Assembly (NCBI GenBank): GCA_046484665.1
Contig: JAWOIN010000180.1
Location: 333 to 64,332 of the forward strand
Length of the DNA stretch: 64,000 bases
From: Gemmatimonadota bacterium
GTDB taxonomy: Bacteria > Gemmatimonadota > Gemmatimonadetes > Palauibacterales > Palauibacteraceae
Direction of reading: 5' to 3'
The position numbers and the translations under genes are program-made. The notes beneath the pieces were generated by a model that worked only from the letters and a program-made list of their open reading frames with translations, had not been told where the DNA came from and searched no databases. How positions within the stretch are numbered: position 1 is the first letter of the stretch; each line of letters opens with the position of its first letter. Shown here in pieces: positions 2,510 through 59,024 of this stretch.

Positions 2510-3247
2510 CTACATCCGCACCGTGCCCGTTCCGCCCGCGGCCGTGGCCGCACGGAGACGGAACAGGAGCCGGCGCTGGTCCATTCCCTCGTCGATCCAC
2601 TCCAGCTCCTCCGAGTCGCCCTCGCGGAGCTGCGCGATCTGCGTCAGCACGATCTCCAGGTCGTCCAGCAGCGCCCTCAGCTGCGGGTCGTCCGCGGCCG
2701 GCGACCCCAGCAGCAGACGGGTCCGGGTGAGGAGCGGCCTCGCCCACTCCCGCACCTCCACCACCGACTCCTCGGCCGCTCCCCCGGCCCGGACCATCGT
2801 CAGGAAGGTCTCGCTGCGATCGAGCAGCTGCCCGGCCGCGGCGCGATACGGGAGCGACTCCGCGGCCGACTCCCGCCCGGAGTCCGGCACCGCCGTCGCG
2901 ACTCCGCCGGCGTCGGCCACGATCGAGCCCTCCGGTCCCGTCGCCGGCCGCTCGGAGATCCTGCCGAGCGCGACGCCGAGCGCCAGCGCCGCCGCGATCC
3001 CGATCCACCACGGCTTCGGCCGCAGTGCCTGACGGAAACCCCGGCCCCGGCCCGGGTCGCCGTTACTCCCGCGGCCGTCCCGGACCGGATCGCGTCCGGC
3101 CCGCGCCTCGCGGATGCCCGCCCAGATCTCCTCGCGCGGCGTCTCCGGCGGCGGGTTCCAGTGCCGCCGCGCCGCCTCGCTCAGTCCGCGCACGAACGCC
3201 TCCTCGACCTCGGGGCCGGGATCGGCGCCGCCGTTTCCGTCGCTCAT
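2510..3247 (-). CDS. Membrane-spanning anti-sigma factor
   Basis: ATG at 3247 overlaps the sigma-factor stop (ATGA). There is a single TM helix (PKPWWIGIAAALALGVALG). The upstream part of tracked ORF 2510..3931 is the antisense shadow of the sigma gene. Confidence 0.7.
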   Translation of the reverse strand: MSDGNGGADPGPEVEEAFVRGLSEAARRHWNPPPETPREEIWAGIREARAGRDPVRDGRGSNGDPGRGRGFRQALRPKPWWIGIAAALALGVALGRISERPATGPEGSIVADAGGVATAVPDSGRESAAESLPYRAAAGQLLDRSETFLTMVRAGGAAEESVVEVREWARPLLTRTRLLLGSPAADDPQLRALLDDLEIVLTQIAQLREGDSEELEWIDEGMDQRRLLFRLRAATAAGGTGTVRM

Positions 3248-3786: not shown

Positions 3787-4010
3787 GGTCTTCCGGTCTC
3801 GAGTCTCGGAATCCGGCCTTCACACTGTCGGACACCGTCCGCGCGCAGACCGTTTCGTCGTCCGACAAGGTCGCACCGCGGCCGGTCCCGCGCGCCGGCT
3901 CCCGCGCGGCCGGCGGAGTTTGTCGCCCCACCCCCGGCTCTCTATCATTGACGGGCCGTCCGCCCGGCCGTGCCGGCCGGAACCGCGTCCGCCATCGGGG
4001 AGCCCGCGCG

Positions 4011-8584: not shown

Positions 8585-8826
8585 GATTCCCGGGCGAGGA
8601 GACCCAGAAGGGCGTATACGTGGTGCTGAGCCGGCCAGTCGGCGAGGCCGGCCGCGAGTTCGTACGGGACCCGGTCTCCGACCCCGAGATCCACGTCGCG
8701 CTCGACGACCTCGAGCACGAAGACCAGCTCGTGGGAAAGCTGACGGGCATGGGCTGGCGCCTCACCTTCGTCGGCGGCGGCAGTCGCACCGACGAGACCC
8801 GGCGCTTCTACTTCCGGCGGATCTGA
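8581..8826 (+). CDS. Hypothetical 81-aa protein translationally coupled to the FDH alpha subunit
   Basis: GTG at 8581 overlaps the alpha-subunit TGA (GTGA). GC3 is very high. It is visible only as the tail of shadow ORF 5623..8826. No family recognised. Confidence 0.5.
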   Translation: MRFPGEETQKGVYVVLSRPVGEAGREFVRDPVSDPEIHVALDDLEHEDQLVGKLTGMGWRLTFVGGGSRTDETRRFYFRRI

Positions 8827-9089
8827 CCCCACCCGTCCGGTCCCCGCAGGCCTCCCAGCGAGGACGCGGGCCTTGACCGGCGGCCCGCCTTCCGGCGATG
8901 CTGGCCCCAGCGCGAAGGTCTCCGAGGCCCGGGCGCCGTTCCTCAGAATACAATCGCACTACCGGGGGATCATCCCCGCCAGCAGGGGACCCGGCCGCAG
9001 GGAGGCCGGGTCCGTACCGCGGACGTACGGCGTCCCGTGGCGACTCGCGCCCGGGCTTCGCGGCGTCCGCTCACGATGTGGAGGAGTTC

Positions 9090-9521
9090 ATGGTTCGTCG
9101 CACAATCCGTCTCGCCGCTGCCGCGCTGCTCGCGCTTCCCCTCGCCGCCGTCGCGCAGGACGCGGAGGACGAGCCGCAGATGCTTCAGATCTCCGCCTGG
9201 CAGTGCCCGATGGGCGGGGACATCTACGACGCGGTCGACGCCTGGTGGAACGAGAAGAACCTGCCGATCGCCCAGCAGCTGGTGGACGAGGGCAAGATCC
9301 AGAGCGCGGGCATCTTCTACCACGCGTGGGCGGACGAGTGGAACGTCCAGACCTACGTCATCGCGAAGGACATCCCCACGATCCTGGCGGCGGTCGAGGA
9401 GATGAACGAGCGCGGAACCGCGATGTATCCGGACGATGAAGGGCTCTCGAAGTGGTGCACGACGCACCGGGACGGCTTCTACCAGTTCGGGAAGAGCACC
9501 GAGGGCAACGACGAGGGCTGA
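9090..9521 (+). CDS. Secreted hypothetical protein
   Basis: GGAGGA lies 4 nt before the ATG at 9090. Signal peptide MVRRTIRLAAAALLALPLAAVAQD. No family recognised. Confidence 0.6.
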   Translation: MVRRTIRLAAAALLALPLAAVAQDAEDEPQMLQISAWQCPMGGDIYDAVDAWWNEKNLPIAQQLVDEGKIQSAGIFYHAWADEWNVQTYVIAKDIPTILAAVEEMNERGTAMYPDDEGLSKWCTTHRDGFYQFGKSTEGNDEG

Positions 9522-9545
9522 CCCCCTTCCGACGTTCCGGGTGCC

Positions 9546-9575
9546 GAAGGGCCGGGGATCGCTCCCCGGCCCTTC
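9546..9575. terminator. Bidirectional hairpin between convergent genes
   Basis: Perfect 13-bp stem GAAGGGCCGGGGA/TCCCCGGCCCTTC with a 4-nt loop, between the stops at 9521 and 9598. Confidence 0.6.
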
Positions 9576-9597
9576 TCGCATCCCGGACGCGGTCCGC

Positions 9598-10848
9598 TCA
9601 GGGAAGCGCCGGCACCACCCAGATGTCCCAGCCGCCCGAGGAGGGCCGGGAGACCGCCAGCTGCGACCCGTCGGGCGACACGGCGGGCTCGCGGCCGCCA
9701 TCGGTGTCGGGCACCGGCCGCTCGTCCGACCCGTCCGCGGCGATCCGCCACACCTGCCCGCCTCGACGGACGTAGAGAAAGAGGCCGTCCGGCGTCCACG
9801 CGGGGTCCATGCCCGGCCCCAGCACCCGCGTCTCCGAGCCGTCCGGCCGGACGAGCTCGACCGTGGCCGCCCCGAGGCCGTGGTCCGTCGTCTCCTGGAC
9901 GCAGCGCGGAAAGTAGGTGCCGTCGGGAAGCAGGGCGAAGTTGCCGCACAGGTCCGTGACGGCCCCCGTGCGCGGGAGCCGCACGAAGGCGATCCAGGCG
10001 CCGTCCGGGCTCCAGGCCGGGCTCACGCCGTCGAGCGTGCCGGGAACCGGGGTCGAGGCCGGGTCTCCCGGACTCCACAGCCGCAGCTCGAGGCCGTCGC
10101 CGAAGACGAGCGTCGTGCCGTCCGGGCTCCAGGAGGGCCGGAAGAACAGCGCCCCGTCCCCCGCGTACAGGGCCTGCGAGGGGATCCAGTCGACGATCAC
10201 CCGGCCGACCACGGGCTCGAACAGAGGAGGGTTTACCGCGGTCGGGTCCTCGGTCCGTCCCGGGATCACGACGGGCACGAAGGGCGTGGCGTCGATCGAC
10301 CCGATCTCGCCGGGCGTCCGCACCCGCAGCGCGAGCTCCTCGAGCGCGGGGGCGGGCGGGGTCGGGTCCGTCCCGGGCACCGTTCCGAGCGTGGGGGGAA
10401 TCGGCGGGTCGCTCGACTCGCAGAGCCACGCCGCCTCGCCGCACCCGGCGGCCGGGGCAAGGCGGATCCGGTGCTGGAACGCGACGCGGCCCGACGTCGG
10501 GTCGAGGCCGGGGGACGTGAACGCCCGGCCCAGGGAGCCGTCCTCTCCCTGCAGATCCGGGAAGACGACGGCCGCCGCGCCTCCGTCCGCCGGGATCGCG
10601 AGGAGCGTCGAGGGATCCCCGAACGTCGAGAGCACGCTCCCCCGCGCGTACACGATCGTCGCGCCGTCCGCGGACCACGCGGGAGCGCGGTCGTCCCGCG
10701 CGTCGAATGTGAGCCGGCGGACCGCGGTCGGAGGGCCGGGCGGCTCGGGCGACCAGGGTTCCGGCGCATCGCGGCACCCCTGCGCGAGCGCGAGGACCGA
10801 AGCCAGGGCCGCGGCCCGTACCGTCCTTCTTCCCGCCGCTCGGTTCAT
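9598..10848 (-). CDS. TolB-like WD40/PD40 beta-propeller protein, probable lipoprotein
   Basis: ATG at 10848 gives MNRAAGRRTVRAAALASVLALAQGC. Repeated PD40 units are present (PAWSADGATIVY, PSWSPDGTTLVF, PAWSPDGAWIAF, PAVSPDGSQLAV). Confidence 0.8.
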   Translation of the reverse strand: MNRAAGRRTVRAAALASVLALAQGCRDAPEPWSPEPPGPPTAVRRLTFDARDDRAPAWSADGATIVYARGSVLSTFGDPSTLLAIPADGGAAAVVFPDLQGEDGSLGRAFTSPGLDPTSGRVAFQHRIRLAPAAGCGEAAWLCESSDPPIPPTLGTVPGTDPTPPAPALEELALRVRTPGEIGSIDATPFVPVVIPGRTEDPTAVNPPLFEPVVGRVIVDWIPSQALYAGDGALFFRPSWSPDGTTLVFGDGLELRLWSPGDPASTPVPGTLDGVSPAWSPDGAWIAFVRLPRTGAVTDLCGNFALLPDGTYFPRCVQETTDHGLGAATVELVRPDGSETRVLGPGMDPAWTPDGLFLYVRRGGQVWRIAADGSDERPVPDTDGGREPAVSPDGSQLAVSRPSSGGWDIWVVPALP

Positions 10849-11083
10849 CCCGCCTCGCTCGCACGGGGACGGCTCCGCGTCGCCGCGGCCCGCGAACAAG
10901 TTCGCCAGGGGCCCGCCGCGGGTCCAGCGCAGGGGCCGGGGGAGGTCCAGCGCCGGGTCCAGGCGCACGGCTGCGGCGGGACGGTTCACGGATGTGGAAA
11001 GGGCCGGCGCGCGGCCGGCCCCTCCTTCCTGTCGGCAGGTCGCCGTGGCGCCGCGTCGCGACGCCCGGGGTGGTCGAAACGGG

Positions 11084-11527
11084 TCAGCTGCCCTTGATCT
11101 CGATCCTCCGCGGCTTCGCCTCCGCGGCCTTCGGGAGCTTCACCGTCAGCACCCCCCTGTGGAAGCTCGCGTCGACGCTCTCCGGGTCGATCGAGTGGGG
11201 CACCGAGAAGCTGCGGGTGAACCGGCTCCAACCCCGCTCGCGCAGGTGGTACGTGCCCTTCTCCTCCCTCTCGGCGGAGTGCTCGCCGCTGATCGAGAGG
11301 ACGCCCTGCTCGAGGTTCACCTCGACCTCGTCGAGATCGAAGCCCGGCAGGTTCATCTCGAGGACGAAGTCGTCCTCCGTCTCGTAGAAGTCGGCCTCGG
11401 GGCCGCCCGGACCCATCGTGACGAAGGGCCGGCCGAGCAGCTCCTCGAACAGCCGGTCCGCGTCCCAGCGTGCATCGGGGAAGTTGCGGAGCACCGCCGT
11501 CGGCCGTCGCCTGGTCGGAAGCATCAT
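11084..11527 (-). CDS. Hsp20/alpha-crystallin small heat-shock protein
   Basis: Alpha-crystallin core (DFVLEMNLPGFDLDEVEVNLEQGVLSISGE...GVLTVKLPK). AGGAGG lies just upstream of the ATGATG at 11527/11524, which I prefer over the ATG at 11545. Confidence 0.85.
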   Translation of the reverse strand: MMLPTRRRPTAVLRNFPDARWDADRLFEELLGRPFVTMGPGGPEADFYETEDDFVLEMNLPGFDLDEVEVNLEQGVLSISGEHSAEREEKGTYHLRERGWSRFTRSFSVPHSIDPESVDASFHRGVLTVKLPKAAEAKPRRIEIKGS

Positions 11528-11795
11528 CTCGCTCCTCCTTTCCATGAGATCTCCTGTGGGCCGGGACCGCCCCGGCCCGGGCTCGATACGCCCTGTCCCG
11601 CCGTCGCCGGCGAAGGGCGTCCGTCTGCCCGGAAGGAGGTGCAACGCGCGTGCCGGGAATCCGTCGGCCGAATCTGCCAACTCTGCTCTCTCAAAAGGAT
11701 TACGAGTGTCGAAAATGCAGGCTGGTGTCAGAACGGCAGGACGGTCGGGGAAGAAGGGGAGGAGGCGTCCGGTCCGGCTCGGATCCGGTCGGCCG

Positions 11796-11824
11796 CGGGT
11801 CCCGGGGTCTGGCCCCGGGACCCG
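11796..11824 (-). terminator. Hairpin downstream of the gene at 11838..12332
   Basis: Perfect 12-bp stem CGGGTCCCGGGG/CCCCGGGACCCG with a 5-nt loop, 14 nt past the stop codon. There is no clear U-tract. Confidence 0.45.
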
Positions 11825-11837
11825 CTTCCGGGCCGTC

Positions 11838-12332
11838 CTACTTCACCGCGTAGCTGGCCTTCCAGGTACCGTGCCCGCTGGTGGGAGTCGTCACGGCGCG
11901 CCGCCACGTGCCATCGCCGGTGATGCCGGCGAACTTCCCGTATCCCGCGAAGTAGGCGAACGTCCCGCACATGTCCGGGCAGTCGGCGGTGCCTGCGGCG
12001 TCCATCCGGAACCAGTACGACAGCCCGTTCCCCGCACCGTCGTCGGCGAAGCACGTGCCGTTCGCGGCCGTCGTCTTTCCGTCGGCCCCGGACACGAACT
12101 GGCCCACGCACTCGGTGGGCAGGCCGTCCGCCGGAGAGCTTCCCTGGGTCGCGAACACCATCTGGTGATAGTGCAACAACGCCATCGTGCCACCGCCGGG
12201 CATCTCCATCTCCTCGGCGTCCGTGATGAAGTTCGCGTAGCGCCCTTCACCGGACCCGGACTTCTGGGCCTGGAGCGCGCCTGGAACGAGCAGCGCGAGT
12301 ACGAGCGTGGCGGCGGAGAGCCGTCGGATCAT
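11838..12332 (-). CDS. Secreted Cys-containing hypothetical protein
   Basis: GGGAGG RBS and ATG at 12332. Signal peptide MIRRLSAATLVLALLVPGALQAQ. Four Cys residues. No family recognised. Confidence 0.6.
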   Translation of the reverse strand: MIRRLSAATLVLALLVPGALQAQKSGSGEGRYANFITDAEEMEMPGGGTMALLHYHQMVFATQGSSPADGLPTECVGQFVSGADGKTTAANGTCFADDGAGNGLSYWFRMDAAGTADCPDMCGTFAYFAGYGKFAGITGDGTWRRAVTTPTSGHGTWKASYAVK

Positions 12333-12507
12333 CGAAACCTCCCTGGGCTGTCTGCTGTCGCGGCGCGACTCTGGATCGTCCGCGCCGCAAGAGGGGTGGA
12401 CCGCCGATAGAAAGCCGATGGACCCGTGGGTGTCAAGGTTCTCTGCGGTGTCGGCGGAGGAGCGGACCGCCGCCCGCACCGCCGCGAGCCAGGGCCCGGC
12501 GGCGACC

Positions 12508-12609
12508 TCAGTCGCCGAAGTAGGGGCGACCGCTGGAGGCCATGTCGGCCGCCAGGACGACGGCGATCACGACCGCGACCGCGATTTCGATCAGCATGAC
12601 CGTGAGCAT
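12508..12609 (-). CDS. 33-aa single-TM peptide downstream of nosY (below the ORF-track length cutoff)
   Basis: GGAGG lies 5 nt before the ATG at 12609. Translation MLTVMLIEIAVAVVIAVVLAADMASSGRPYFGD. Nearly all third codon positions are G/C. Confidence 0.5.
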   Translation of the reverse strand: MLTVMLIEIAVAVVIAVVLAADMASSGRPYFGD

Positions 12610-12689
12610 CGGGACCTCCAGCCTCCGAGGGGAGCGTCTGACTGGAGATGCCCTGCGAGGGTCACGGGGCCGTCACGCGAGGCGGCCGC

Positions 12690-13478
12690 TCAGAGGTCGC
12701 CGTGACGGAAGATGCGCCGTGCGAGCAGGTAAGGAGCGATCGCCCAGGCGGCGAGCGCCGCGAACGCTACCGCGGCGCCGGCCGCGCCCCCGAAGAAACG
12801 CCGGAACACGGCGCCCGTATAGCCGAGCAGCGCCGCCGCGTCGAGATCCATCAGCAGGAGCACCCGCGCCGTGTCCACGGGGTTGAGGAGCGTCGCCGCG
12901 AGCGCGGGGCGCTCGAGCGGCCAGCCGGCGAGCGCGGTGGCCGCGAAGAACAGGACGCCGTCGTAGACGATCGTGAGGCCGAGCCAGAGGAGGAGCGCCG
13001 TCCCCATCCCCGCCGAGCGGTCCCGGATCGCCGCCGCGACGAGGAAGGCGAGCGACAGGAAGCCGAGGGCCAGAAGCGTGACGACGGCCAGGAAGCGCGC
13101 CACGGCGGCCGCCTCGGCGGCGCCGGAGGCCGTCAGCAGCACCGGCGCCCCGAGCCCGAGCGCGGTCACGGCGGCCAGCGGCAGCGCGAGTCCGAGGTAC
13201 TGCCCGTCCAGGAGGCAGTCGCGGCCGACGGGATGCGCGAGCAGCAGCCGGTGGAAGTCCCGGGCGCCGTACAGGTAGAGCGTCCCGAACAGGACGCTCA
13301 CGAGCGGGACCACGATCAGCACGAGGTTCACGAGGCCCGTGAGCGCCCGCCGCCCGCCTCCGCCGAACGCGACGAGCGCCCCCGCGAACGCCACCAGGAG
13401 CAGGGCGTACACGACCAGCCAGCGGCTGCGGGCCACGTCCCGGAGCTGGCTGCGGGCGATCCGGAGCGTCGCGCTCAC
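12690..13478 (-). CDS. nosY: NosY, ABC-2 type permease of the Nos maturation transporter
   Basis: Polytopic membrane protein of 262 aa. Its ATG overlaps the nosF stop. It sits in nosD-nosF-nosY order. Confidence 0.8.
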   Translation of the reverse strand: MSATLRIARSQLRDVARSRWLVVYALLLVAFAGALVAFGGGGRRALTGLVNLVLIVVPLVSVLFGTLYLYGARDFHRLLLAHPVGRDCLLDGQYLGLALPLAAVTALGLGAPVLLTASGAAEAAAVARFLAVVTLLALGFLSLAFLVAAAIRDRSAGMGTALLLWLGLTIVYDGVLFFAATALAGWPLERPALAATLLNPVDTARVLLLMDLDAAALLGYTGAVFRRFFGGAAGAAVAFAALAAWAIAPYLLARRIFRHGDL

Positions 13479-14251
13479 ATCGCCTCCAGGCGCGGTCGTG
13501 GCCCCGAGCCGGCCGCGCGCCGGCCCGACCGGGGCTCCGCCCGCATCGATCCGCGCTCCATCAGCCGCACGAAGGCCTCCTCGAGCCGGCGCGCCCCGGT
13601 CCGCTGGAGCAGCTCGTCCACCTCGCCGGCGAAGCGGGACCGGCCGTCCACCAGGAACAGGAGGTCGTCGGCCAGGTCCTCGAGCTCCGTGAGGATGTGC
13701 GACGTGATGAGCACCGTCCGGCCCTCCCCGCTCGCCTCGAGCACCCGGTCCTTGAGAATCGCCCGCGCGACGGGGTCGAGCCCCGCGGTCGGCTCGTCCA
13801 GCACCAGGAGCGCGGGGTCGTAGCGGAAGGCGAGGGCCGCGCTCACCTTCTGCCGCATCCCGCCGGACAGCCCGCCGAGCGGGCGGTCCGCGAGCTCCGG
13901 GACGCCGAGGCGCGCGGCGAGCCCTCCGTCGTCGCCGGCCGCTCCGCCCCGGAGGTCGTCGAGCAGGCCCGTGAGCTCCTCCACGCGCAGGTTCTCGGGG
14001 AAGGCCGGCTCCTGCGGCATGTACCCGATCCGGGCCCGGTACCCCGGGTCGTCGCCGACCGGCGCCCCATCGATCCGCAGCTCGCCCGCGTCGGGACGGA
14101 CGAGCCCGAGCAGGACCTTGATCAGGGTCGTCTTCCCCGAGCCGTTCGGCCCGACGATCGCCGTCACCCGTCCCGCGCGGAGGTGGGCATCGAGCCCGTG
14201 CAGGGCCGTGACCCGACCGTACGTCTTCCGGAGGCCCTCGACCCGGATCAC
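13475..14251 (-). CDS. nosF: NosF, ABC transporter ATP-binding protein
   Basis: GTG at 14251 overlaps the nosD TGA (GTGA). Walker A GPNGSGKTT, signature LSGGMRQK and Walker B LLVLDEP are present. The N-terminal 280 aa of tracked ORF 13475..15106 is a shadow of nosD. Confidence 0.85.
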   Translation of the reverse strand: MIRVEGLRKTYGRVTALHGLDAHLRAGRVTAIVGPNGSGKTTLIKVLLGLVRPDAGELRIDGAPVGDDPGYRARIGYMPQEPAFPENLRVEELTGLLDDLRGGAAGDDGGLAARLGVPELADRPLGGLSGGMRQKVSAALAFRYDPALLVLDEPTAGLDPVARAILKDRVLEASGEGRTVLITSHILTELEDLADDLLFLVDGRSRFAGEVDELLQRTGARRLEEAFVRLMERGSMRAEPRSGRRAAGSGPRPRLEAM

Positions 14252-15564
14252 GATTCCGTCCCCGCGGCGCGTCCCACGCGTCCCGCGTCCCCCCGGTCGA
14301 GCCGGCGCATCGCGGGCGCCGGGTCCACGAGGTTTCCGGGCGTGAGGGACGGCACCAGCCGCTCCGTCCAGTCGAGCAGGGTGGCGAAGAAGCTGCGCAG
14401 CAGGACCGTCGCCTCCGGCGTCGACTCCACCACGAGCGCGAACAGCCGGACCGGGCGGTGCTCCACGTCCCCGATCCCGTCCCGGCCGAGGTCGTAGCCC
14501 CGGTAGCCGTCCCAGTAGTTCGCGCGGAACGCGGAATGGATGCGGCGGCTGTTCGTCGTCACGTCGAACGTGTTGTCGACGAAGTTGTTCCGCGAGAACA
14601 CGGATGCCTCCGAGTTCGCGAGCAGGCGCACGGCGCGCCCGTTCTCCACGAAGTCGTTCTCCTCGACCCGGGTCCGGTCGAAGCCCTCCGCGTGGATCCC
14701 GACCGTGTTCCGCCGGAACACGTTGCCCCGGATCTCGCTGTCCGTGATGTCCTTCAGCAGCAGCCCGAACGAGGCGCTCCCGTGGCTGTCCTCGAACCGG
14801 TTGCCGCGCATCACGACCCCCGTCGTGTACATCACGGCCACGCCGGCGCCGTTCCGGAGGAACTCGTTCTCCTCGTAGCGGCAGCGGTCGGAGAACATGA
14901 AGTGGAGGCCGTAGCGGAGGTTCTCCTCGCTTCGGTTCCCCGTCACGAGGCCGTCCTCGACGAACTCGAAGTAGATCCCGTCCCGGTGGCCGCGAACGAG
15001 GTTGCCCTCGACGGTCACGCCGCGGGAGTACCAGACGTGGATCCCGTTGCCCGAGCGCGACTCCCGGCGCGAGTTCCCGACGATCACGTTGTCCCGGATC
15101 ACGCATCCCTCGCTCCCGGCGAGGTAGATCCCGAAGAACGCGTTCTCGATCCGGTTGCCCTCGATCGTGCAGCGGTTCCCGCCGCGGACCTCGATCGCGG
15201 CGCGGTCCTCCACGAACGAGACCCCCACGTTCCGGAGCTCGAGCCCGGAGATCCGGACGTCGTCCGCCGTGACGAGGAGGAGCCCCCGCTCGTTCTCCCC
15301 GTCGAGCACCGCCCCCACTTCGCCCTCGATCCGGACCCTGCGGTCGACCTCGACGGTCGGCTCGCGGTAGACGCCGGGCCGGACGACGATCCGGGCCCCG
15401 GGCGCGGCCCGCCGTACGGCTTCCGCCAGGGTCCGCACGGGGCCGTCGGCGCCGACGACGACGAGCGTGTCGGCGGCCCGGGGCCCGGGGGCCGGCGCGA
15501 CCCCCTCCTGCGGCGGGCGCCCCGCGACGAGCGCCAGCGCGAGGACGAGCGGCGCGAAGCTCAT
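14248..15564 (-). CDS. nosD: NosD, periplasmic right-handed beta-helix copper-binding protein
   Basis: Signal peptide followed by repeated parallel beta-helix units (IEGNRIENAFFGIYL, IRDNVIVGN, VEGNLVRGHRDGIYF). Position is immediately downstream of nosZ and the NosB-like::NosL gene. Confidence 0.85.
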   Translation of the reverse strand: MSFAPLVLALALVAGRPPQEGVAPAPGPRAADTLVVVGADGPVRTLAEAVRRAAPGARIVVRPGVYREPTVEVDRRVRIEGEVGAVLDGENERGLLLVTADDVRISGLELRNVGVSFVEDRAAIEVRGGNRCTIEGNRIENAFFGIYLAGSEGCVIRDNVIVGNSRRESRSGNGIHVWYSRGVTVEGNLVRGHRDGIYFEFVEDGLVTGNRSEENLRYGLHFMFSDRCRYEENEFLRNGAGVAVMYTTGVVMRGNRFEDSHGSASFGLLLKDITDSEIRGNVFRRNTVGIHAEGFDRTRVEENDFVENGRAVRLLANSEASVFSRNNFVDNTFDVTTNSRRIHSAFRANYWDGYRGYDLGRDGIGDVEHRPVRLFALVVESTPEATVLLRSFFATLLDWTERLVPSLTPGNLVDPAPAMRRLDRGDAGRVGRAAGTES

Positions 15565-19460: not shown

Positions 19461-20144
19461 ATGGAATCCTGGATCGAGCCGAAGGTCCCCGGACTCGGGG
19501 AGACGCAGCGGAGGCTGCTCGCAGCCCTGAAGCGGAAGGGCGAGGGCACGATCTCCGAGCTCGCCGAGATGTTCGCGCTCTCCTCCGGCACGCTGCGGGA
19601 GCACATGAACGCGCTCTCCGCGCGCGGCCTCGTGGAGCGCTCGGGCAGCCGGCGCGACGGACCGGGACGCCCCGAGATCGTCTACGCCCTCACCGATCGG
19701 GGAGAGGGACTGTTCCCCCGCGGCGAGGCGGAGCTGCTCGCCGAGCTCGTCCGGCACCTGCTCGACACGGGGCAGGACGAGGTGCTCGAGCGCTTCTTCG
19801 AGGCGCGGGTCGAGGAGCGCCGCGCAGAGGCGGAGAGGCGGACCCGCGGGCTCGAGGGGGCGGCGCGCCGCGAGGCCGTGGCCCAGATCTTCACCGAGGC
19901 CGGCTTCCTCGCCGAGGTGGACGAGGACGAGGACGGGACGCCGCTGCTCCGCCTCTGCCACTGTCCGCTGCGGGCCGTGGTGGACGAGACGCACCTCCCC
20001 TGCCGCGCCGAGATCAGGCTCCTGCAGGAGCTGGTGGGCGGCGAGCTGGAGCGCGTCGAGCACATCCCCGACGGGGACTCCGCGTGCGCCTACCGGGTGG
20101 TCGAGCCGAAGAAGCCAGGCGGAAGCTCGCGGCGACGCTCTTAG
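19461..20144 (+). CDS. Winged-helix (ArsR/SufR-like) transcriptional regulator with a C-terminal four-Cys motif
   Basis: wHTH segment (ISELAEMFALSSGTLREHMNALSARGLVER...GRPEIVYALT). C-terminal LCHCPL...LPCRAE...SACAY cysteines. Start taken at MESWIEP; the ORF is open from 19392. Confidence 0.7.
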   Translation: MESWIEPKVPGLGETQRRLLAALKRKGEGTISELAEMFALSSGTLREHMNALSARGLVERSGSRRDGPGRPEIVYALTDRGEGLFPRGEAELLAELVRHLLDTGQDEVLERFFEARVEERRAEAERRTRGLEGAARREAVAQIFTEAGFLAEVDEDEDGTPLLRLCHCPLRAVVDETHLPCRAEIRLLQELVGGELERVEHIPDGDSACAYRVVEPKKPGGSSRRRS

Positions 20145-20168
20145 CGGACGCGGGACCGGCCGCTATAT
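20141..20168 (+). promoter_or_regulatory. Putative sigma-70 promoter of tRNA-Arg
   Basis: TTAGCG (20141-20146), 16 nt spacer, TATATT (20163-20168), about 10 nt before tRNA base 1. Confidence 0.4.
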
Positions 20169-20178
20169 TGGGCGGTCC

Positions 20179-20252
20179 TGGCCCCGTAGCTCAGGAGGAT
20201 AGAGCGTCGGATTCCTAATCCGAAGGTCGCTGGTTCGAGTCCAGCCGGGGTC
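20179..20252 (+). tRNA. tRNA-Arg (anticodon CCT)
   Basis: A 74-nt cloverleaf folded by hand: acceptor GGCCCCG/CGGGGTC, D arm GCTC-AGGAGGATA-GAGC, anticodon arm TCGGA-TTCCTAA-TCCGA, T arm GCTGG-TTCGAGT-CCAGC, discriminator A. No encoded CCA. Confidence 0.9.
20210..20252 (+). repeat. attL-like copy of the 43-bp direct repeat (3' half of the tRNA)
   Basis: ATTCCTAATCCGAAGGTCGCTGGTTCGAGTCCAGCCGGGGTCA is identical to 24011..24053. Confidence 0.85.
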
Positions 20253-20259
20253 ATGTCCT

Positions 20260-20431
20260 GCGCGAAGCGCAGATTCTCGTCGAGCCGTGGCGCAGGGAGT
20301 ACAATACGATCCGGCCGCACAGTTCCCTGGACTGACTACAGGTCGCCCGCTCCGCAGGCGATTCGGCCCGTCCCGACCTGGCTCAGACGACCCGTGCTGC
20401 ACGGGCCGGAACATGCCGCCAGATTAGCATA
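20260..20431 (+). pseudogene. C-terminal remnant of an IS3-family (rve/DDE) transposase
   Basis: REAQILVEPWRREYNTIRPHSSLD then a stop. After a 4-nt slip (TGAC) it continues YRSPAPQAIRP, matching the conserved W..YN..RPHSSLGYR.PAP tail of IS3 OrfB. It begins only 8 nt after the tRNA. Confidence 0.6.
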
Positions 20432-20482
20432 ATTCGTGGTGCCACTCTTGGAGGCAGGTCACTCCCGCGTCCGGGGTCGAGC

Positions 20483-22051
20483 ATGTCCGGCATCTCCCAG
20501 TACTTCCACGGGGAAGAGGGCCTGGTGACCGAGCTGGCGTGGATGCCTGCCGGGGACCAGCTTGTGCTCCGCATGGGCCTGGCGGGCGACCCCCACCGCA
20601 CGGTGGCCATCGACTACGGCTCGGACATCGGCATCGATCCCCTCCTGCGCCCGGGGGGGAGAGCCATCTACCTGCGCGCCAACGCCTGGAGCGGCATCTG
20701 GACCGCGGGGGCCCACCGCTACCATCCCGAGACGGACGCGGCCATGGCGCGGGCCCTGGAGACCCGGAGCCGGATGGAGGAGTACGGGGGGCTGGTGGGG
20801 GAAGGAGGAGCCAACCTCCGGCGGTGGCTCCAGACTCTGGCCACGGACACGGGCCTCCCCTTGCGTCCGCTCCAGCCGGGCGACCGGGTGTCCGATACTC
20901 CCCTGGACGCCGCCGGGGTGTTCCTGAGCTACTCCAGCCAGAACGCCCTCCTGGCCCAGTGGCTCTACCGCCAGCTCCGCTCCGAGGGAAACGTGGGGGT
21001 CTGGTTCGACCAGGGGCACCCGGGGGAGCACCCCGGCCACGAGGAGGGGATCGCCGCATGGCTGCGCGCCTCGGTGCAGGAGTGCCAGATCCTGGCCCTC
21101 CTCCTCACCGGCCCTGCTCTGGACTCGCCCTGGGTGCGCCGGGAGATCGAGTACGCCGAGGAGAAGGCGGAGCGGGAGCCCGGCTTCCATTTCGTGGTCC
21201 TGAAGCTCGAGGATGTCCCGCTTCCCGCGCTGCGGGCACGGTCGCGGGTAGTGGACTGCGCCGGAATGAACGAGGGGGAGATTCTCGAGAACACCTACGC
21301 CGCGGTCTACCGCAGGGAGAGCCACCGGGAGTGGATGGCCGAGCAGGGCCGACGTGGGTGGCCCGGTCACGAGGAGCCCTCCGTCGGTTACGGGCACCTG
21401 GCGTCGGCAGGGGGCACGGCTCGGGCGCTTCGGTGGCGGCGGTCGGCAGGGGAGGTGGGCTGGGAGCTGGAGTACGAGAGCGCCGGGGCCACGAAGACGG
21501 TGCGGGGAACTGGACCGGGAGAGGCCGTGGATCCCGGAATCCGCCCCGGGGACCGGATTGGGTTCTTCCAGTTCGCCCTGCACACGCCCTTGTGGATGCG
21601 CTCGGACCAGCTCTCCCTCACTCCCCAGGAGGTGATGGCGGACTATCTCCGGGCGCTGGCCGCGCCGCCGGCATCCCCTCGCCTGCGCTCGCTTGTGGCT
21701 GGCAGCTACACTTTCTTCCTTTTCCTCACGGTGGCCCTGCTTGCCGCCAGGAACGACTTTGCGCCGGGGGTGCCGTGGTGGCTGATCGGGGCCTCGGCGC
21801 TGGCGCTGGTGGCGACCGGGAGCGTGTGGCTCGTCTCCCCCGAGTGGGGGCCCCGTTCTCCCCTGTGGAGGAGCGGTACGGGGCAGGCCATCGGCTGCCT
21901 GGCCACTCTGATCAACGGGGCGGCGGCCATGGCCGTGGTGGTGCGGGCGTTCGGCGGGTGGGACGCTCCCTGGACCCTGATCCTGGGGGTCTGGCTGGCG
22001 CTCCTGGCCGGGGCGCACCTCGCCACGGCCCGCATACGGGACGATAGCTGA
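20483..22051 (+). CDS. Multidomain TIR protein: unknown N-domain, TIR domain, unknown middle domain, four C-terminal TM helices
   Basis: TIR motifs GVFLSYSSQN (aa 145-154) and ILALLLTGPALDSPWVRREIEYA (aa 203-225), with the Glu of the S.W...E motif at codon 21143-21145. Hydrophobic helices lie at aa ~405-423, 430-451, 466-488 and 495-514. Confidence 0.8.
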   Translation: MSGISQYFHGEEGLVTELAWMPAGDQLVLRMGLAGDPHRTVAIDYGSDIGIDPLLRPGGRAIYLRANAWSGIWTAGAHRYHPETDAAMARALETRSRMEEYGGLVGEGGANLRRWLQTLATDTGLPLRPLQPGDRVSDTPLDAAGVFLSYSSQNALLAQWLYRQLRSEGNVGVWFDQGHPGEHPGHEEGIAAWLRASVQECQILALLLTGPALDSPWVRREIEYAEEKAEREPGFHFVVLKLEDVPLPALRARSRVVDCAGMNEGEILENTYAAVYRRESHREWMAEQGRRGWPGHEEPSVGYGHLASAGGTARALRWRRSAGEVGWELEYESAGATKTVRGTGPGEAVDPGIRPGDRIGFFQFALHTPLWMRSDQLSLTPQEVMADYLRALAAPPASPRLRSLVAGSYTFFLFLTVALLAARNDFAPGVPWWLIGASALALVATGSVWLVSPEWGPRSPLWRSGTGQAIGCLATLINGAAAMAVVVRAFGGWDAPWTLILGVWLALLAGAHLATARIRDDS

Positions 22052-22080
22052 GTAACCTGCGATCCCTCCGCCGTCCGGGT

Positions 22081-22114
22081 ACAGGGGACCGCCCTGGAGC
22101 GGGCTGGCCCCTGT
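22081..22114. terminator. Shared hairpin between the convergent island genes
   Basis: ACAGGGG-ACCGCCC...GGGCTGG-CCCCTGT imperfect stem within the 65-bp gap between the stops at 22051 and 22117. Confidence 0.5.
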
Positions 22115-22116
22115 CC

Positions 22117-23409
22117 TTACGCCTCGATCTCCTCCACGAAGGTCTTCACGGTGCCGAGGTGGCGGGTCATGGTGGGTCCGTCCATGGCGAGCCAGTGCAC
22201 CACGTACTCGTTCTCGCCGGTGATGAAGCGCACCAGGTACCCGTGGCTGATGCCCTGCTGGAAGTGGCACTCGTGGCACAGCGCCCCACCGCGGCGCAGC
22301 ATCTCCTGGCGGGTGATGGTGGCGCCCCGGGCGGCGAGGTTCTGCTCGGTAGCCGCCCGGAAGGTCGACTCGTCCGTGACGGTGGGCTCCGAGTACTGGA
22401 ACACCATGAAGTCCAGGCGCGAGCGCCGCCGGAAAATCCCTCCCAGCCCCGAGCCGCCGCTCTCGGGCGGCCTGAGGAGGGCCGCGAAGCTGGTGGGCTG
22501 CTCCGCGAGCACCCGACAGTGCCAGGCGGGCGGCGCGCGAAAGGAGAAGGGGGAGAGCCCGGGGCAGCTCGGCCGCGTTCGCGGGGAAAGCGGGATCTCC
22601 GCCGGCGGGCCCGGGGTCCCCGCAACCTGCGCGGAACCCCCTTGGGACCGCTCCCGGGCCAGGACCGCCGCAGGTCGCTCGGGCGAGGGCAGGGTCTCGC
22701 GTTCCAGCAGGAGGAAGCGGAGGAGGGCAAGGGCGGTGGAGGTGTCCGGTACCGTGGTGGCCGACCGGAGAGAGGGCTCCCCCGCCGCGCCCACCACGAC
22801 GGTCTTGAAGGCGTAGCCCGCCTCGGTCAGGTGGAGGATCTCCTCCTGGACGAACGGGGTGATCCGGCGGGTGTCCAGGACGATGAGCGCGACCGAGCGG
22901 GCGAACGACGACACCGCGTCCCGCCAATCCACCCCGCGGTCGATGCGGAAGCAGTCGCCGGGGATCTTCATATCGGTGGCGAGGATCCCCGTCTGGAGCA
23001 GGCTCACGGGGCGGAAGGGAAGCACTGCGTCGCGGATGGCGGCCTGGAGCGAGATCTGCTCCTCGCCCGAGCTCCCCAGGACCAGGATCGAGGCGGGGAC
23101 CCTCTCTCGGGTCCACTGGCCCAGGCCCGTCACGAGGAGGAAGAGTGCTGCCAGGGCCGGGATTGGCCCTGCATCTCCCGCCCACTGGGCTGCCAGCAGG
23201 GCCAGGCCACCTCCCAGCGCCACCCACTTGAGCCGCGCGAGGGTACGGATACGCCCGGAATACCGGCCCAGGGTCCGGGTGATGGCGAGGCACTCGCGGT
23301 AGCGGTCGGCTCCCAGGACGCGGCGCTGCCGCCGGACGCTCCAGGCGCTCCAACCCAGGAGGAAGACGGCCACGATGACAGCGATGACGGAAGCGACAAC
23401 TGCGATCAT
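22117..23409 (-). CDS. 3-TM membrane protein with a cytoplasmic alpha/beta domain and an unknown C-terminal domain (partner of the TIR protein)
   Basis: GGAGGA lies 4 nt before the ATG at 23409 (MIAVVASVIAVIVAVFLLGW). TM helices at aa 1-21, 61-76 and 83-98. Beta-alpha-beta pattern SILVLGSSGEE / VALIVLDTRRITPFVQEEILHL / KTVVVGA, then a Pro-rich linker and a C-terminal ~100 aa containing CHECH. The tracked N-terminal extension to 23793 is rejected. Confidence 0.65.
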   Translation of the reverse strand: MIAVVASVIAVIVAVFLLGWSAWSVRRQRRVLGADRYRECLAITRTLGRYSGRIRTLARLKWVALGGGLALLAAQWAGDAGPIPALAALFLLVTGLGQWTRERVPASILVLGSSGEEQISLQAAIRDAVLPFRPVSLLQTGILATDMKIPGDCFRIDRGVDWRDAVSSFARSVALIVLDTRRITPFVQEEILHLTEAGYAFKTVVVGAAGEPSLRSATTVPDTSTALALLRFLLLERETLPSPERPAAVLARERSQGGSAQVAGTPGPPAEIPLSPRTRPSCPGLSPFSFRAPPAWHCRVLAEQPTSFAALLRPPESGGSGLGGIFRRRSRLDFMVFQYSEPTVTDESTFRAATEQNLAARGATITRQEMLRRGGALCHECHFQQGISHGYLVRFITGENEYVVHWLAMDGPTMTRHLGTVKTFVEEIEA

Positions 23410-23789
23410 GGTTCCTCCGGGAGCCCGTCGGTGCCCGCGAGACCCTCCGGCTCCAAACGGGGGATCTCCGGAGGGGAGATGACCTGCTCCTTGACCCTCA
23501 CGTAACGTAAGGCTGCATCTTCGCATCGGCCATCGGGGGAGGGAGCCGCCACCCGGCGGCCTCCCCGCGACCGGGCAAGGAAAGGGGAGCAGGGGCATGA
23601 GCGGCATGACCTGACCCCCTGAAACGAGACCGCCTGCACAGTTAGGATTGCGGTCGGTGCGGTGCCCACCTCGTTCATGGATCAGCTTGGGGGGCACGAC
23701 AGGAATCCAGACCCTCAGCTTAGAGGCGGACCAAACCCGGGGGGAAACGTCACTAGAGGTCCGACTGCATATGCATCCGGCAGATGTTT

Positions 23790-23882
23790 TCAACGGATGA
23801 TCATGATCTTGCAGTGATGCAAATGTCGGTCGATCAGAGCGGCCACCATCACGTCGTCGCCCAGTCCGAGCATCACTTTGCC
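23790..23882 (-). pseudogene. C-terminal remnant of an IS21-family IstB-like ATPase
   Basis: GKVMLGLGDDVMVAALIDRHLHHCKIMIIR-stop resembles the conserved IstB tail (FGD.V.A.A.LDRL.HH......G). No upstream Walker motifs remain. Confidence 0.4.
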
Positions 23883-24010
23883 CGTACTTTGACTGAGATC
23901 AGAGAAGGGAGGGCACGCGAGAGAAGGAGACAGGTGCGGAAAGGGCCGGATCGGCCCTATCTTCCGCGACGTGAGAGAAGCCGGGTCACGCCGGAGAAGG
24001 CGGGCCTGGT

Positions 24011-24053
24011 ATTCCTAATCCGAAGGTCGCTGGTTCGAGTCCAGCCGGGGTCA
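24011..24053 (+). repeat. attR-like partial tRNA copy (43 bp)
   Basis: Identical to 20210..20252. It lacks the 5' half of the tRNA, so it is not a functional tRNA. Confidence 0.85.
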
Positions 24054-24097
24054 CTGTGGCGAACGCCACCGCTCCTCTCGATCCGAAAGGTCGGTAC

Positions 24098-24589
24098 ATG
24101 CGACTGGCTTTCCTCTGCGTCACGGTCGGAATGCTCACGCTCGCCGCGTGCGGGGACGACGATCCGACCGGGCCCGCGGCCCCGAACCTGGTCGGCGCCT
24201 ACGACGGGACGTGGACGGTGACGGTGGAAGGGCCGGGGCTCGAGACGACCACGCAGGTCTGCGCGGGCACGGTCATGGTCACCGACCAGTCGGGAGGGGT
24301 CTTCGAGGGCACCTTCTCCCAGTCCGCGAGCGAGGACTGCGAGGCCGGGAGCGGCTTCGTCACGGGCACCGTCGCGGCGGACGGCGCGGTCTCGCTGCTG
24401 CTCGGCGCGTCCGGGGGTGGCGGGCCCGCGTTCGAGGAATCGACGGGGTGCACACTCCTGTCGGCCGACGATCGGTATTCCGGCTCCTACGCGGAGGGGG
24501 CGCTGTCGTTCGAGACCAGCCTGACCGCGCAGTGCCCGGAGTCCGGGAGCGTCACCGTGGTCTGGACGTTCGCCTTCGCCGGATCGTAG
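24098..24589 (+). CDS. Lipoprotein of unknown function
   Basis: ATG at 24098 gives MRLAFLCVTVGMLTLAAC, a lipobox. Its last ~56 codons are duplicated as a decayed copy at 31124..31327. Confidence 0.7.
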   Translation: MRLAFLCVTVGMLTLAACGDDDPTGPAAPNLVGAYDGTWTVTVEGPGLETTTQVCAGTVMVTDQSGGVFEGTFSQSASEDCEAGSGFVTGTVAADGAVSLLLGASGGGGPAFEESTGCTLLSADDRYSGSYAEGALSFETSLTAQCPESGSVTVVWTFAFAGS

Positions 24590-24622
24590 GCGACATCGCG
24601 ACCGGACGGGAGCCCGGGTGTC
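24419..24622 (+). repeat. Left copy of a ~204-bp direct repeat (3' end of the lipoprotein gene plus 33 bp)
   Basis: Aligns without indels to 31124..31327 with about 17 mismatches, counted by eye. Confidence 0.8.
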
Positions 24623-24652
24623 CCGGAGCCAGGCCGGCGGCACTCCTGCCCA

Positions 24653-25361
24653 TCACGCCGTCTGCTCACCCATGGACATGGTATCACGGGCCGGATCGAT
24701 GGCACGGCAGCGTGCACGCGCGGTGACGTCCCTCGCGTCTTCGATCCCGGCGGTGGCGTGCATGTGCGCGTGCTGCCTGGCCCGCACGATGCGCCAGCCG
24801 GTCGCGCCGAGGATAAGCGACGCGGCGATCCCGACGGCGATGTTCGCGAAGTGCCCGACCCACGCGACGATCCCGGCCACTTCCGCCGAGAACAGGTAGC
24901 CGGCCGCCGCGTAGAAGCCCGCCCAGGCCAGGAGGGCCACGCCGTCCACGAGCACGAACGCGCGGGCGCGGATGCCCGCCAGGCCGCTGGCCGCCGCGAT
25001 GAGGTTCCCCGTTCCGGGCAGGAACTTCGAGGGAAGCACGTACAGCGGGCCGACCCGGCGAACCCTCGCGGTCACCCGGACGACGCAGGCACCGGGATTC
25101 GACGTCAGGTTGCAGGCCGTGTCCACGAGACCGGGACCACGCCACCGCGTGAGCCCGTACCAGGTCAGGTCGGCGGCCAGCCCTCCGCGCGGCCGCGCTG
25201 AGCACGACGAGGGGCAGGGAGAGATCGCCCGTGGCGACGGCGGCGCCCGCGAGGACCAGGACCGGAACGCTGGCCACCGGAAGCCTGATGAATTCGATGA
25301 ACCCGAGCAGCACCAGCAGCGGATATCCCCAGCCGTGCAGCAGGTCTCCGATGGCCCCCAT
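24653..25361 (-). pseudogene. DedA/VTT-family membrane protein interrupted by a frameshift
   Basis: The N-terminal part (MGAIGDLLHGWGYPLLVLLGFIEFIRLPVASVPVLVLAGAAVATGDLSLPLVVLSAA) is in the frame of ORF 24684..25361. The remainder (GGLAADLTWYGL...YVLPSKFLPGTGNLIAAASGLAG...) is in the frame of ORF 24653..25126. The frame switch is near 25190-25200. Confidence 0.65.
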
Positions 25362-31123: not shown

Positions 31124-31327
31124 GGCGGGCCCGCGTTCGGGGAAGCGACGGGGTGAACGCTCCTATCGGCCGACGACCGGTATACCGGCTCCTACGCGGA
31201 GGGGGAGCTGTCGTTCGACACCAGCCTGACCGCGCAGTGTCCGGAGTCCGGGAGCGTCACCGTGATCCGGACGTTCGCCTTCGCCGGCTCGCAGGCGACA
31301 TCGCGACCGGGCGGGAGCCCGGGCGTC
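31124..31327 (+). pseudogene. Decayed duplicate of the 3' end of the lipoprotein gene (right copy of the 204-bp repeat)
   Basis: About 92% identical to 24419..24622. TGC has become TGA (a premature stop) and the original TAG has become CAG. No 5' part of the gene is present. Confidence 0.75.
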
Positions 31328-31800
31328 ACTCTCGACCACCCGCCCGGGCTGAACGTCCGAGGCTGCTCGCGCAGCTGACGGCGAATCCGGCCCGGGCCGC
31401 CCCTCTTCGTATGGTCGGCTACTTGGTCGGACGTTTCTTCGATGCGGGCTTCGTGGACTTCGTCTTACCCGGAGCGGGCGGACGGGGTCTCGGCGGCGGC
31501 TGGCCCCTCTTGATCCAGCCGGGCTGACGCGGGGGGCGCTTCTCACCGGGTGGCATGATCAGCCGCCGTTCCGATCGTGGCTCCCAGCGCAACCGGCACA
31601 GACGCCGGCCGCTCGCAAGCACGCGAACACGTTACGACCCACCTGGAATCGACTCCGGTCATGGAGTGACCGACCTTCGCCCGTCAGAACGGCGGATCGA
31701 ATATCGCAGAGGTGCGAACCGGGCCGACCCCCTCTGCGCTTCTACGCCGTCCCGTCCCGACGTCCTTTCCGCTCGATCTTCCGCCCGCGATATTACGACA

Positions 31801-58930: not shown

Positions 58931-59024
58931 CCGGACGGTCTGCGCGACTGCGGTGTGCGGCACGCGCGGAGCGGGTCACGCGGTCGCGTGTCCCGGCCCA
59001 GATGTGCGAACTCTCAGTCGGGAA

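Follow-up and report, generated by a model that had tools for sequence, protein, structure and literature searches.

Genomic islands that tyrosine integrases insert into tRNA genes regenerate their target at one end and displace a fragment of it to the other, as described in PMC4383910. The cis-mobilisable elements (CIMEs) keep both attachment sites, attL and attR, without integration genes, and tandem arrays of elements arise when another element integrates at such an att site (PMC5704250). Here, we describe an islet of 3757 bp (20254-24010) which lies between two copies of the 3′ half of a tRNA-Arg(CCT) gene in a Gemmatimonadota bacterium (GenBank assembly GCA_046484665.1, contig JAWOIN010000180.1, positions 333 to 64,332; this whole stretch of 64,000 nucleotides is termed the window, and unlabelled coordinates refer to it). 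We consider it likely that this is a CIME-like islet, which arrived by site-specific integration into the 3′ part of the tRNA gene, has kept its att sites intact and carries no recombinase of its own. The related loci with which it was compared are given by number (L001 and so on) where they have to be told apart.

The repeat, its tRNA gene and the empty sites

The intact tRNA-Arg(CCT) gene, which is present as a single copy within the window, contains the left copy of a 43-bp repeat, ATTCCTAATCCGAAGGTCGCTGGTTCGAGTCCAGCCGGGGTCA, that extends from the last base of the 5′ strand of the anticodon stem to the discriminator base and recurs without a mismatch (43/43) some distance to the right (Table 1). 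A preliminary description of this stretch, made from the letters alone, had reported a perfect repeat of the tRNA 3′ half, and alignment of the two copies bears this out; the right copy lies where it had been placed, whereas the left had been put one base too low, at 20210-20252 instead of 20211-20253. The repeat breaks off sharply at both edges (on the left, 20210 is G and 24010 is T). No tRNA 5′ half precedes the second copy, as had also been observed: four of the seven bases to its left equal those of the tRNA, and neither ARAGORN nor Rfam calls a tRNA at this position. With up to three mismatches allowed, a 26-nt piece of the repeat has two occurrences in the window and none in 100 shuffled versions of it, so the repeat is not explained by chance.

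Relatives in which the tRNA is uninterrupted show directly that DNA has been inserted. A metagenome search with the lipoprotein encoded to the right of the repeat returned ten contigs, and in five of these (L015, L016, L019, L021 and L022) the tRNA lies just upstream of the lipoprotein gene. L040, L045 and L046 were found via the regulator encoded upstream of the tRNA, for which a first metagenome scan with the regulator as query had given no match. L045 and L046 have the order regulator, tRNA, lipoprotein, EamA; with the five contigs above they bring to seven those in which an intact tRNA-Arg(CCT) stands 33-90 bp upstream of the lipoprotein gene, and in L021, L045 and L046 the upstream regulator is also the same. 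L021 is an exact empty site, its positions 84-203 corresponding at 93% identity to 20134-20253 (the end of the regulator gene, the promoter region and the tRNA) and its positions 161-733 corresponding at 81% to 24011-24590. L040 (from SRR22985127) shares 95.2% identity with the window over 1204 bp and encodes an identical regulator protein, and the stretch directly behind its tRNA, CTCTGGCGAACGCCACCGCTCCT, equals 24054-24076 but for one mismatch. As L040 measures only 1.2 kb and stops 22 nt beyond the tRNA, it could by itself be a graph path across the repeat, a weakness of which the longer empty-site contigs are free. The empty tRNA-Arg site with the lipoprotein gene directly behind it, which the preliminary description had suggested should be sought in related genomes, has thus been found in seven contigs, with the same junction in an eighth, and the 3757 bp between the two repeat copies are a real insertion.

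The tRNA and its promoter-proximal sequence are also found in L001, L021, L040, L041, L045 and L046, and upstream of the tRNA all relatives have an ArsR-type regulator and the nos cluster. The closest relative in the genome collection, L001 (NosZ 92% identical), is collinear with 6.1-20.1 kb of the window and loses synteny exactly at the tRNA, with the contig ending before any right end becomes visible. The L001 sequence 3′ of the tRNA (10930-14751) contains, as judged by eye, open reading frames (ORFs) for a 413-aa P-loop ATPase-like and a 396-aa MsrA/MsrB-like protein and the start of an insertion sequence (IS) transposase-like ORF. These have no counterparts in the window, no second tRNA fragment is present before the contig ends, and the sequence is probably another occupant of the same site.

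The tRNA genes themselves bear possible traces of integration. The tRNA-Arg(CCT) of L040 (1131-1205) differs from that of the window at five positions, which is unusually many for a tRNA at an overall identity of 95%, and two of the differences are compensatory pairs in the T stem, which reads GCGCG/CGCGC in L040 and GCTGG/CCAGC in the window. The differences fit overwriting of the 3′ part of the tRNA, be it by integrating elements or by gene conversion. As to the point of crossover, the variants among the tRNA copies of the relatives match neither an anticodon-loop model nor a 3′-end model cleanly.

The conserved arm and other islands at the same tRNA

Immediately left of the displaced tRNA fragment lies a conserved arm of 137 nt, which is 58-93% conserved in three further islands at this tRNA, two of them in tandem in L041 and one in L020, both of which are Gemmatimonadota contigs. 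The arm of the window is 93% identical to L041 10579-10715, 85% identical to L041 7189-7318 and 66% identical to L020 7627-7763. When the window is compared with L041, conservation is higher for the arm (93%) than for the flanking genes (80%), the adjacent spacer standing at 64%, and the arm is therefore probably the functional end of the element and not junk. It contains four GAGAAG repeats on the same strand (at 23902, 23921, 23975 and 23994, against 0.07 expected), which are candidate protein-binding sites. Just before the core lies an imperfect hairpin or inverted repeat in which four compensatory pairs distinguish the window type from the L020 type; coming from two independent lineages only, this covariation is weak evidence for a structure. 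Rfam gave no match to the arm, and an nhmmer profile of the arm run over all fetched loci recovered only the four copies on which it had been trained, the arms of L014, L017 and L018 being too diverged for it.

The organisation of the occupied relatives defines what is shared. In L041, which is 85% identical to the window across the nos region, the tRNA (3995-4070) is followed by island A, a first arm and core (7189-7404), island B, a second arm and core (10578-10758) and the lipoprotein gene. Homology between islands A and B ends after the 10 nt (TAACGACTTA) that follow the core, which means that the conserved parts are the arm and the core only. In L020, only the 3′ segment of the tRNA stands before the lipoprotein gene, and the site is empty in its close relative L019; the two become homologous precisely from the ATTCC of the core onwards, which is the breakpoint base of the window. 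In L013, L014, L017 and L018 the lipoprotein gene is preceded by arm and core in a more decayed form, and arm-core units are absent from the parts seen of the empty-site relatives L021, L040, L045 and L046.

Cargo is unrelated across the islands of the window, L041-A, L041-B, L020 and L014. L041-A encodes a 634-aa protein without a family match together with a lipoprotein rich in Cys, L041-B a protein of the NHL beta-propeller type together with small secreted proteins that are Cys-rich, L020 MBOAT, DUF488 and other proteins, and L014 an MscS channel. No integrase was found in these four islands of the relatives. Scans of IMG/VR for the 43-nt core in both variants and for two arm patterns returned nothing, or a single chance match in an AT-rich phage, and so provide no evidence that the element is a prophage.

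Some further features of these sites were observed. Displaced tRNA 3′ fragments in L041 (7319-7404) and L014 (about 3180-3240 and 7840-7925) share a homologous insertion of about 43 nt in the T loop (…GGT[AGCTCGCACGCTTCGCG…CGACGG]CGAGTCC…), which lies at internal att sites; an att copy from which a working tRNA must be rebuilt could not tolerate it. To judge from these fragments, which come from two different hosts, the inserted variant apparently moves together with the element or att site and not with the tRNA of the host. The unit of tRNA 3′ fragment and lipoprotein gene occurs twice in L014 (2990-3519 and 7700-8502, one copy being cut to 91 codons) and twice in L020 (220-1244 and 7627-8332, as paralogues), which indicates that the lipoprotein gene beside the att site has itself been duplicated or moved in some relatives. 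In the window, the start of the arm, TTGCCCGTAC (23874-23890), resembles the 5′ end of the tRNA, GGCCCCGTAG, and its CTATCTT (23955-23965; CTATATT in L020) resembles a CTATATT box 10 nt upstream of the real tRNA. Viewed post hoc, the arm may have descended from a captured tRNA 5′ half with its promoter.

Contents of the islet and its surroundings

Each end of the islet carries the remnant of an insertion sequence, from the two different families that the preliminary description had recognised, and both stumps lack the side that faces the att sites (Table 1). The IS3-family stump (about 200 bp) matches Pfam rve_3 at positions 38-67 of 67 (E 3.3e-9; 20255 to about 20345, + strand) and is 75-79% identical at the DNA level to annotated IS3-family transposase genes in blastn. 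Its open frame begins 1-2 bp past the end of the tRNA, reads VLREAQILVEPWRREYNTIRPHSSLD and is shifted at about 20333. Because the L041 islands share the 10 nt TAACGACTTA 3′ of the core where the window has this stump, the left arm of the window has been deleted up to the end of the tRNA. Of a full IS3-family element, orfA-orfB between two inverted repeats, there remain one end and these rve_3 residues. The IS21-family stump (75 bp) matches IstB_IS21 at positions 203-225 of 238 (E 6.8e-4), a match that lies under the gathering score because the fragment is short; about 23 C-terminal IstB residues are what is left of an istA-istB pair between terminal repeats. Neither stump is able to transpose. 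A plasmid search with the sequence on the IS21 side gave no match.

The IS3 stump terminates in …GGAGGCAGGTCA (20450-20461), which we take to resemble the right inverted repeat of IS407-type elements. By the same token, TGACCTGACCCCC at 23607 (23607-23619) presumably resembles an IS407-type left end, a likeness that amounts to 7 nt and for which there was no database match. The two would face inward around both cargo genes, which, on this 7-nt match, is the layout to be expected of a composite transposon whose two IS copies had later been cut back.

Table 1. Coordinates of the islet, its att sites and the adjoining genes in the window
Feature	Position	Strand	Basis or remark
tRNA-Arg(CCT), intact, attL side	20180-20253	+	Rfam tRNA, 69 bits; ARAGORN: 20179-20254
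Left 43-bp repeat copy, att core inside the tRNA (anticodon loop to discriminator)	20211-20253	+	
IS3-family remnant, 5′-truncated, last ~30 transposase codons and 3′ untranslated end	20255-20461	+	Pfam rve_3, blastn
Cargo gene 1, TIR-domain protein, 522 aa	20483-22051	+	Pfam TIR_2, E 1.7e-14
Inverted repeat ACAGGGG...CCCCTGT between the convergent cargo genes	22081-22114		Read from sequence
Cargo gene 2, 430-aa membrane-anchored protein	22117-23409	-	Convergent with the TIR gene
Lower-GC non-coding filler	23410-23789		Composition; no open frame with a family match
IS21-family istB remnant, 5′-truncated, last 23-30 codons and stop	23790-23864	-	Pfam IstB_IS21
Conserved 137-nt right-end arm (P arm of att site)	23874-24010	+	Homology to L041 and L020 arms
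Right 43-bp repeat copy, displaced tRNA 3′ fragment, attR core	24011-24053	+	
Host lipoprotein gene, outside the islet, far side of the integration site	24098-24589	+	Homologues 67-80% identical

No integrase is present in the islet, as the preliminary description had noted, nor among the ORFs scanned across the whole window, and a search of the non-coding sequence in the window islet and in L020 recognised no integrase pseudogene. The only recognisable piece in L020 resembles, by eye, a fragment of a sigma-54 activator. The non-coding stretch of about 600 bp in the window islet (23410-24010) does have a lower GC content, 0.63 as against 0.71 for the window. A sigma-70 promoter scan of the islet found none.

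In the TIR protein encoded by the first cargo gene, an N-terminal beta domain is followed by the TIR domain (residues 146-260), by a middle domain that is beta-rich and, at the C terminus, by four hydrophobic helices (403-518). Its AlphaFold model is poor (pLDDT 63) and it has four homologues among 5.8 billion proteins. The motif WVRREI, which includes Glu221, is the same in three of the four homologues and reads WVRKEI in the fourth; Glu221 presumably corresponds to the catalytic glutamate of NAD+-cleaving TIR domains such as that of SARM1 (WVHKEI, Glu642). The protein probably consumes NAD+ and would be of a defence or toxin type; the glutamate motif, the membrane anchor and the location on a mobile islet fit an NAD+-depleting or signal-producing module. 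PADLOC gave weak matches to SAVED_TIR and ThsB (E about 1e-3 for ThsB), the score against ThsB_TIR being 16.2 bits, under the cut-off of 21.2. Membership of Thoeris or of another PADLOC system is not demonstrable, and beside the TIR gene there is no Thoeris partner ThsA, of the SIR2-SLOG or TM-Macro kind, the neighbouring gene having no Pfam or PADLOC match.

This neighbour encodes a 430-aa protein in which an N-terminal transmembrane helix with a helical bundle precedes a Rossmann-like alpha/beta domain, and in which the C-terminal beta domain is like those of PsbP, Mog1 and DUF1795 proteins. Searches of Pfam, PADLOC and the PDB by sequence gave no match. It has ten homologues, by which the start codon is confirmed, and a confident AlphaFold model with a pLDDT of 82, in which Foldseek relates the C-terminal domain to PsbP, EagT6/SciW (DUF1795) and DcrB (E 2e-5 to 1e-3). 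The idea that the two genes form a conserved, Thoeris-like two-gene system was rejected, since homologues of one or the other stand without the partner in eight other contexts altogether. The inverted repeat between them is possibly a bidirectional terminator, on the strength of its sequence; the terminator scan did not call it, as it has no T run.

The composition of the islet deviates modestly but measurably in both codon and tetranucleotide usage, the check that the preliminary description had proposed. The synonymous codon usage of the TIR gene is the most deviant among 45 genes (z 6.6 over the multinomial expectation) and that of the 430-aa gene ranks fifth (z 3.1). A preference for GGG, GCC, CCC and CTG had been noticed by eye in both genes. 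Its direction holds, with shares in the TIR gene of 0.51, 0.54, 0.59 and 0.52, respectively, against 0.32, 0.41, 0.35 and 0.41 in the comparison; it is strong in the TIR gene and weak in the 430-aa gene. Across the 64 kb, tetranucleotide windows with z below -2 start only at 18.5-20.0 and 21.5-23.5 kb and so bracket the islet, with a minimum of z -4.1 at 19-21 kb; two windows over its coding core (starting at 20.5 and 21.0 kb) have z of only -0.6 and -1.0.

Further features lie outside the islet. A second direct repeat, of about 205 bp at about 93% identity, joins 24421-24625 and 31126-31330; the latter is the 3′ end of the lipoprotein gene with about 35 bp more, 6.7 kb downstream and with the stop codon TAG changed to CAG. 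In L021, L041 and L045 the lipoprotein gene is followed by EamA; relative to these, the window contains an additional 10.8 kb or so, at 24.6-35.4 kb. This segment encodes a VTT/DedA-like protein, an ECF sigma/anti-sigma pair and an EgtD-type methyltransferase, as well as a rhodanese protein, a TPR protein and a glycosyltransferase, and lacks an integrase gene. The VTT/DedA-like gene (24653-25361, - strand) is split over two frames, the N-terminal part at 24684-25361 and the C-terminal part at 24653-25126, by a frameshift that is either that of a pseudogene or a sequencing error. About 2.5 kb at 8554-11112, with a 207-aa ORF without a family match and a gene for a PD40 beta-propeller protein, are absent from the otherwise collinear L001 and represent another indel in the neighbourhood of the nos cluster. 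The 100-nt tRNA-Ala(CGC) that ARAGORN calls at 58704-58803 (- strand) lies inside an outer-membrane efflux ORF with OEP domains (57608-58963) and is probably a false positive.

Origin of the islet and comparison with known systems

Collectively, the exact recurrent breakpoint, the perfect core, the conserved arm and the alternation of empty and occupied sites are the signature of site-specific integration into a tRNA gene. An element that has kept attL and attR and lacks integration genes is a CIME by definition, and the islet is accordingly read as CIME-like. Both cores are exact and the attR arm is present; the attL-side arm is missing, the IS3 stump abutting the core, and there are neither integration nor transfer genes. 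The incoming DNA would have carried an att site composed of the arm of about 137 nt and of a tRNA copy that extends from the anticodon loop to the 3′ end. Exchange with the chromosomal tRNA, by a recombinase of whichever type, would have rebuilt an intact tRNA on the left and displaced the second 43-nt copy, preceded by the arm, to the right, before the lipoprotein gene. The interior might then have been remodelled by insertion of IS3- and IS21-family elements, in whichever order, and by their later truncation on the outward-facing sides, leaving two unrelated cargo genes intact. Precise loss by recombination between the 43-bp repeats would produce the empty site of the relatives, and any further movement would need a recombinase from elsewhere in the genome or from another element.

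Several observations weigh against this account. The GC content of the coding part of the islet (0.71) equals that of the host, which would make the donor a close relative or the genes long resident. Both tRNA copies in the window have the T stem GCTGG/CCAGC, where one host-type and one element-type copy would be expected. The arm of the window/L041 type is found in three contigs only. The IS3 stump starts no more than 2 bp from the end of the tRNA, a precision for which simple decay does not account. An autonomous relative with the same arm and core and an integrase was found neither among the fetched loci nor in the pattern scans of IMG/VR, and the recombinase is hence hypothetical; the tandem accretion in L041 would be consistent with derivation from, and mobilisation by, such a relative. 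The preliminary description had spoken of a foreign, now immobilised islet. Its foreign origin by insertion stands, the checks that it had proposed having all turned out in its favour, whereas a lost integrase and immobilisation may have to give way to an element that never had one, because the other islands at this tRNA also lack an integrase and their recombinase may be encoded elsewhere. Ordinary decay is the best explanation for the integrase-less family.

It is conceivable, although we are doubtful, that the islands are dedicated non-autonomous cassettes that never encoded an integrase, each consisting of arm, tRNA-derived core and variable cargo, and that an unlinked recombinase of the host or a helper inserts, stacks and removes them at tRNA-Arg(CCT). 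Their layout would then be closer to integron cassettes or Xer-dependent elements than to decayed islands. All four arm-bearing islands and the MscS-only island of L014 lack an integrase, the islands are small (2-7 kb) with cargo that differs from one to the next, and an arm conserved above the neighbouring genes, with its GAGAAG repeats and with nothing but 10 nt shared past the core in the L041 pair, is what such units might look like. However, the sample is five islands on short metagenomic contigs, the IS debris in the window islet fits decay, no candidate recombinase was identified, and the decay of ordinary islands to remnants without an integrase is common (PMC5704250).

Set against integration by a recombinase is the proposal that one ancient event left arm and core behind and that everything since has been the work of transposons and of RecA-type exchanges anchored on the tRNA and on arm and core, with no recent site-specific recombination. 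We regard this as unlikely. The perfect 43-bp repeat could indeed support RecA-mediated deletion, IS remnants flank the cargo, the more diverged L041 arm (85%) is close to the divergence of the hosts (80-85%), and the decayed units before the lipoprotein gene in L013, L017 and L018 indicate that the structure is old in the clade. Yet the attR core has remained 43/43 although it is non-coding and the neighbouring spacer has fallen to 64% between the window and L041, and empty and occupied sites alternate between close relatives (the window and L040, L020 and L019) always at the same base-exact junction. The tandem stacking of arm and core in L041 by homologous recombination over 43 bp is possible but less direct.

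It is very improbable that the tRNA gene was duplicated in tandem, that the 5′ half of one of the copies, the second, then decayed and that an IS3-flanked composite transposon brought the cargo in between the two. It would give meaning to the likeness of the arm to the tRNA 5′ end and its upstream box, and to the IS3 right end at 20461 and possible IS3-like left end at 23607 that bracket both genes, the latter being the 7-nt match described above. Nevertheless, 43/43 identity gives way to a roughly random level within one base, unlike the decay of a pseudogene, the empty-site relatives have one tRNA copy, and the sharp boundary common to L020, L041 and the window largely refutes the proposal. 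There is next to no chance that the metagenomic contig is a chimera joined at the repeated tRNA segment: the window comes from a contig of 68.6 kb, the related contigs are metagenomic and repeats shorter than the k-mer can yield false joins, but both flanks of the islet are collinear with single relative contigs (L021, L045), as those of a one-sided chimera would not be, and independent assemblies from other samples (L020, L041) have the same occupied architecture.

On the favoured reading of a CIME-like islet, this is a real but ordinary kind of element; what adds interest is that its arm is conserved and that the family at this tRNA is apparently without an integrase. Clean and well bounded, it exemplifies a genomic islet that has decayed and is not autonomous, in a phylum whose mobile elements have hardly been described, and the rare TIR membrane protein that it delivers can reasonably be considered a candidate for an anti-phage or toxin role. 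The tRNA-Arg(CCT) gene behaves as a recombination hotspot across related uncultured lineages, in which empty, single, tandem and decayed states are seen and the occupants seen, all lacking an integrase, have one conserved end in common. Should complete genomes bear this pattern out, a trans-acting recombinase that serves a pool of small cassettes would be indicated and, if true, this would be a useful model for the spread of integrase-less islets.

With the tRNA islands catalogued by Islander (PMC4383910), the islet has in common an intact tRNA that forms one end and a direct repeat, made of the displaced 3′ fragment, that forms the other, together with a block of identity from the anticodon loop to the 3′ end, uninterrupted sites in relatives and a deviant composition. 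It differs in having no integrase inside, in being only 3.8 kb long and in an interior that is mostly IS debris and two genes. Streptococcus CIMEs, and their accretion with integrative and conjugative elements (ICEs) as well as integrative and mobilisable elements (IMEs), likewise keep attL and attR without genes for integration or transfer, and the tandem in L041 is accretion at the same tRNA-type site (PMC5704250). However, an autonomous relative of the islet that shares its att site, whether ICE, IME or prophage, is not known, the host phylum is Gemmatimonadota and every member of the family seen is without an integrase.

The interior can be compared in the same way. The stumps are recognisable by the C-terminal ends that they share with IS3-family (IS407-like) and IS21-family insertion sequences, rve_3 and IstB, but unlike those elements they are 5′-truncated and incapable of transposition. 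Defence genes are often located on mobile islets, and the TIR protein resembles the ThsB proteins of Thoeris in its TIR domain with a conserved glutamate motif and in its location on such an islet. It differs from them in the fusion to four C-terminal membrane helices and in matching the ThsB models below threshold, and the locus differs from Thoeris in that there is no ThsA-like partner and the adjacent gene is not a conserved one.

A final comparison is with integron cassettes. An integron has intI and attI beside its array, whereas here neither IntI gene nor attI adjoins the array, no tyrosine recombinase occurs among the ORFs scanned across the window, and the site is derived from a tRNA and is not a folded attC. 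The likeness is one of logic only: small, promoter-poor cargo units with one conserved recombination end that stack in tandem and, should they be cassettes, are moved by a recombinase encoded outside them. By this analogy, we tentatively raise the possibility that cassettes dock at tRNA-Arg(CCT) in this Gemmatimonadota clade, as a tRNA-based counterpart of integron cassettes served by a recombinase encoded in trans.

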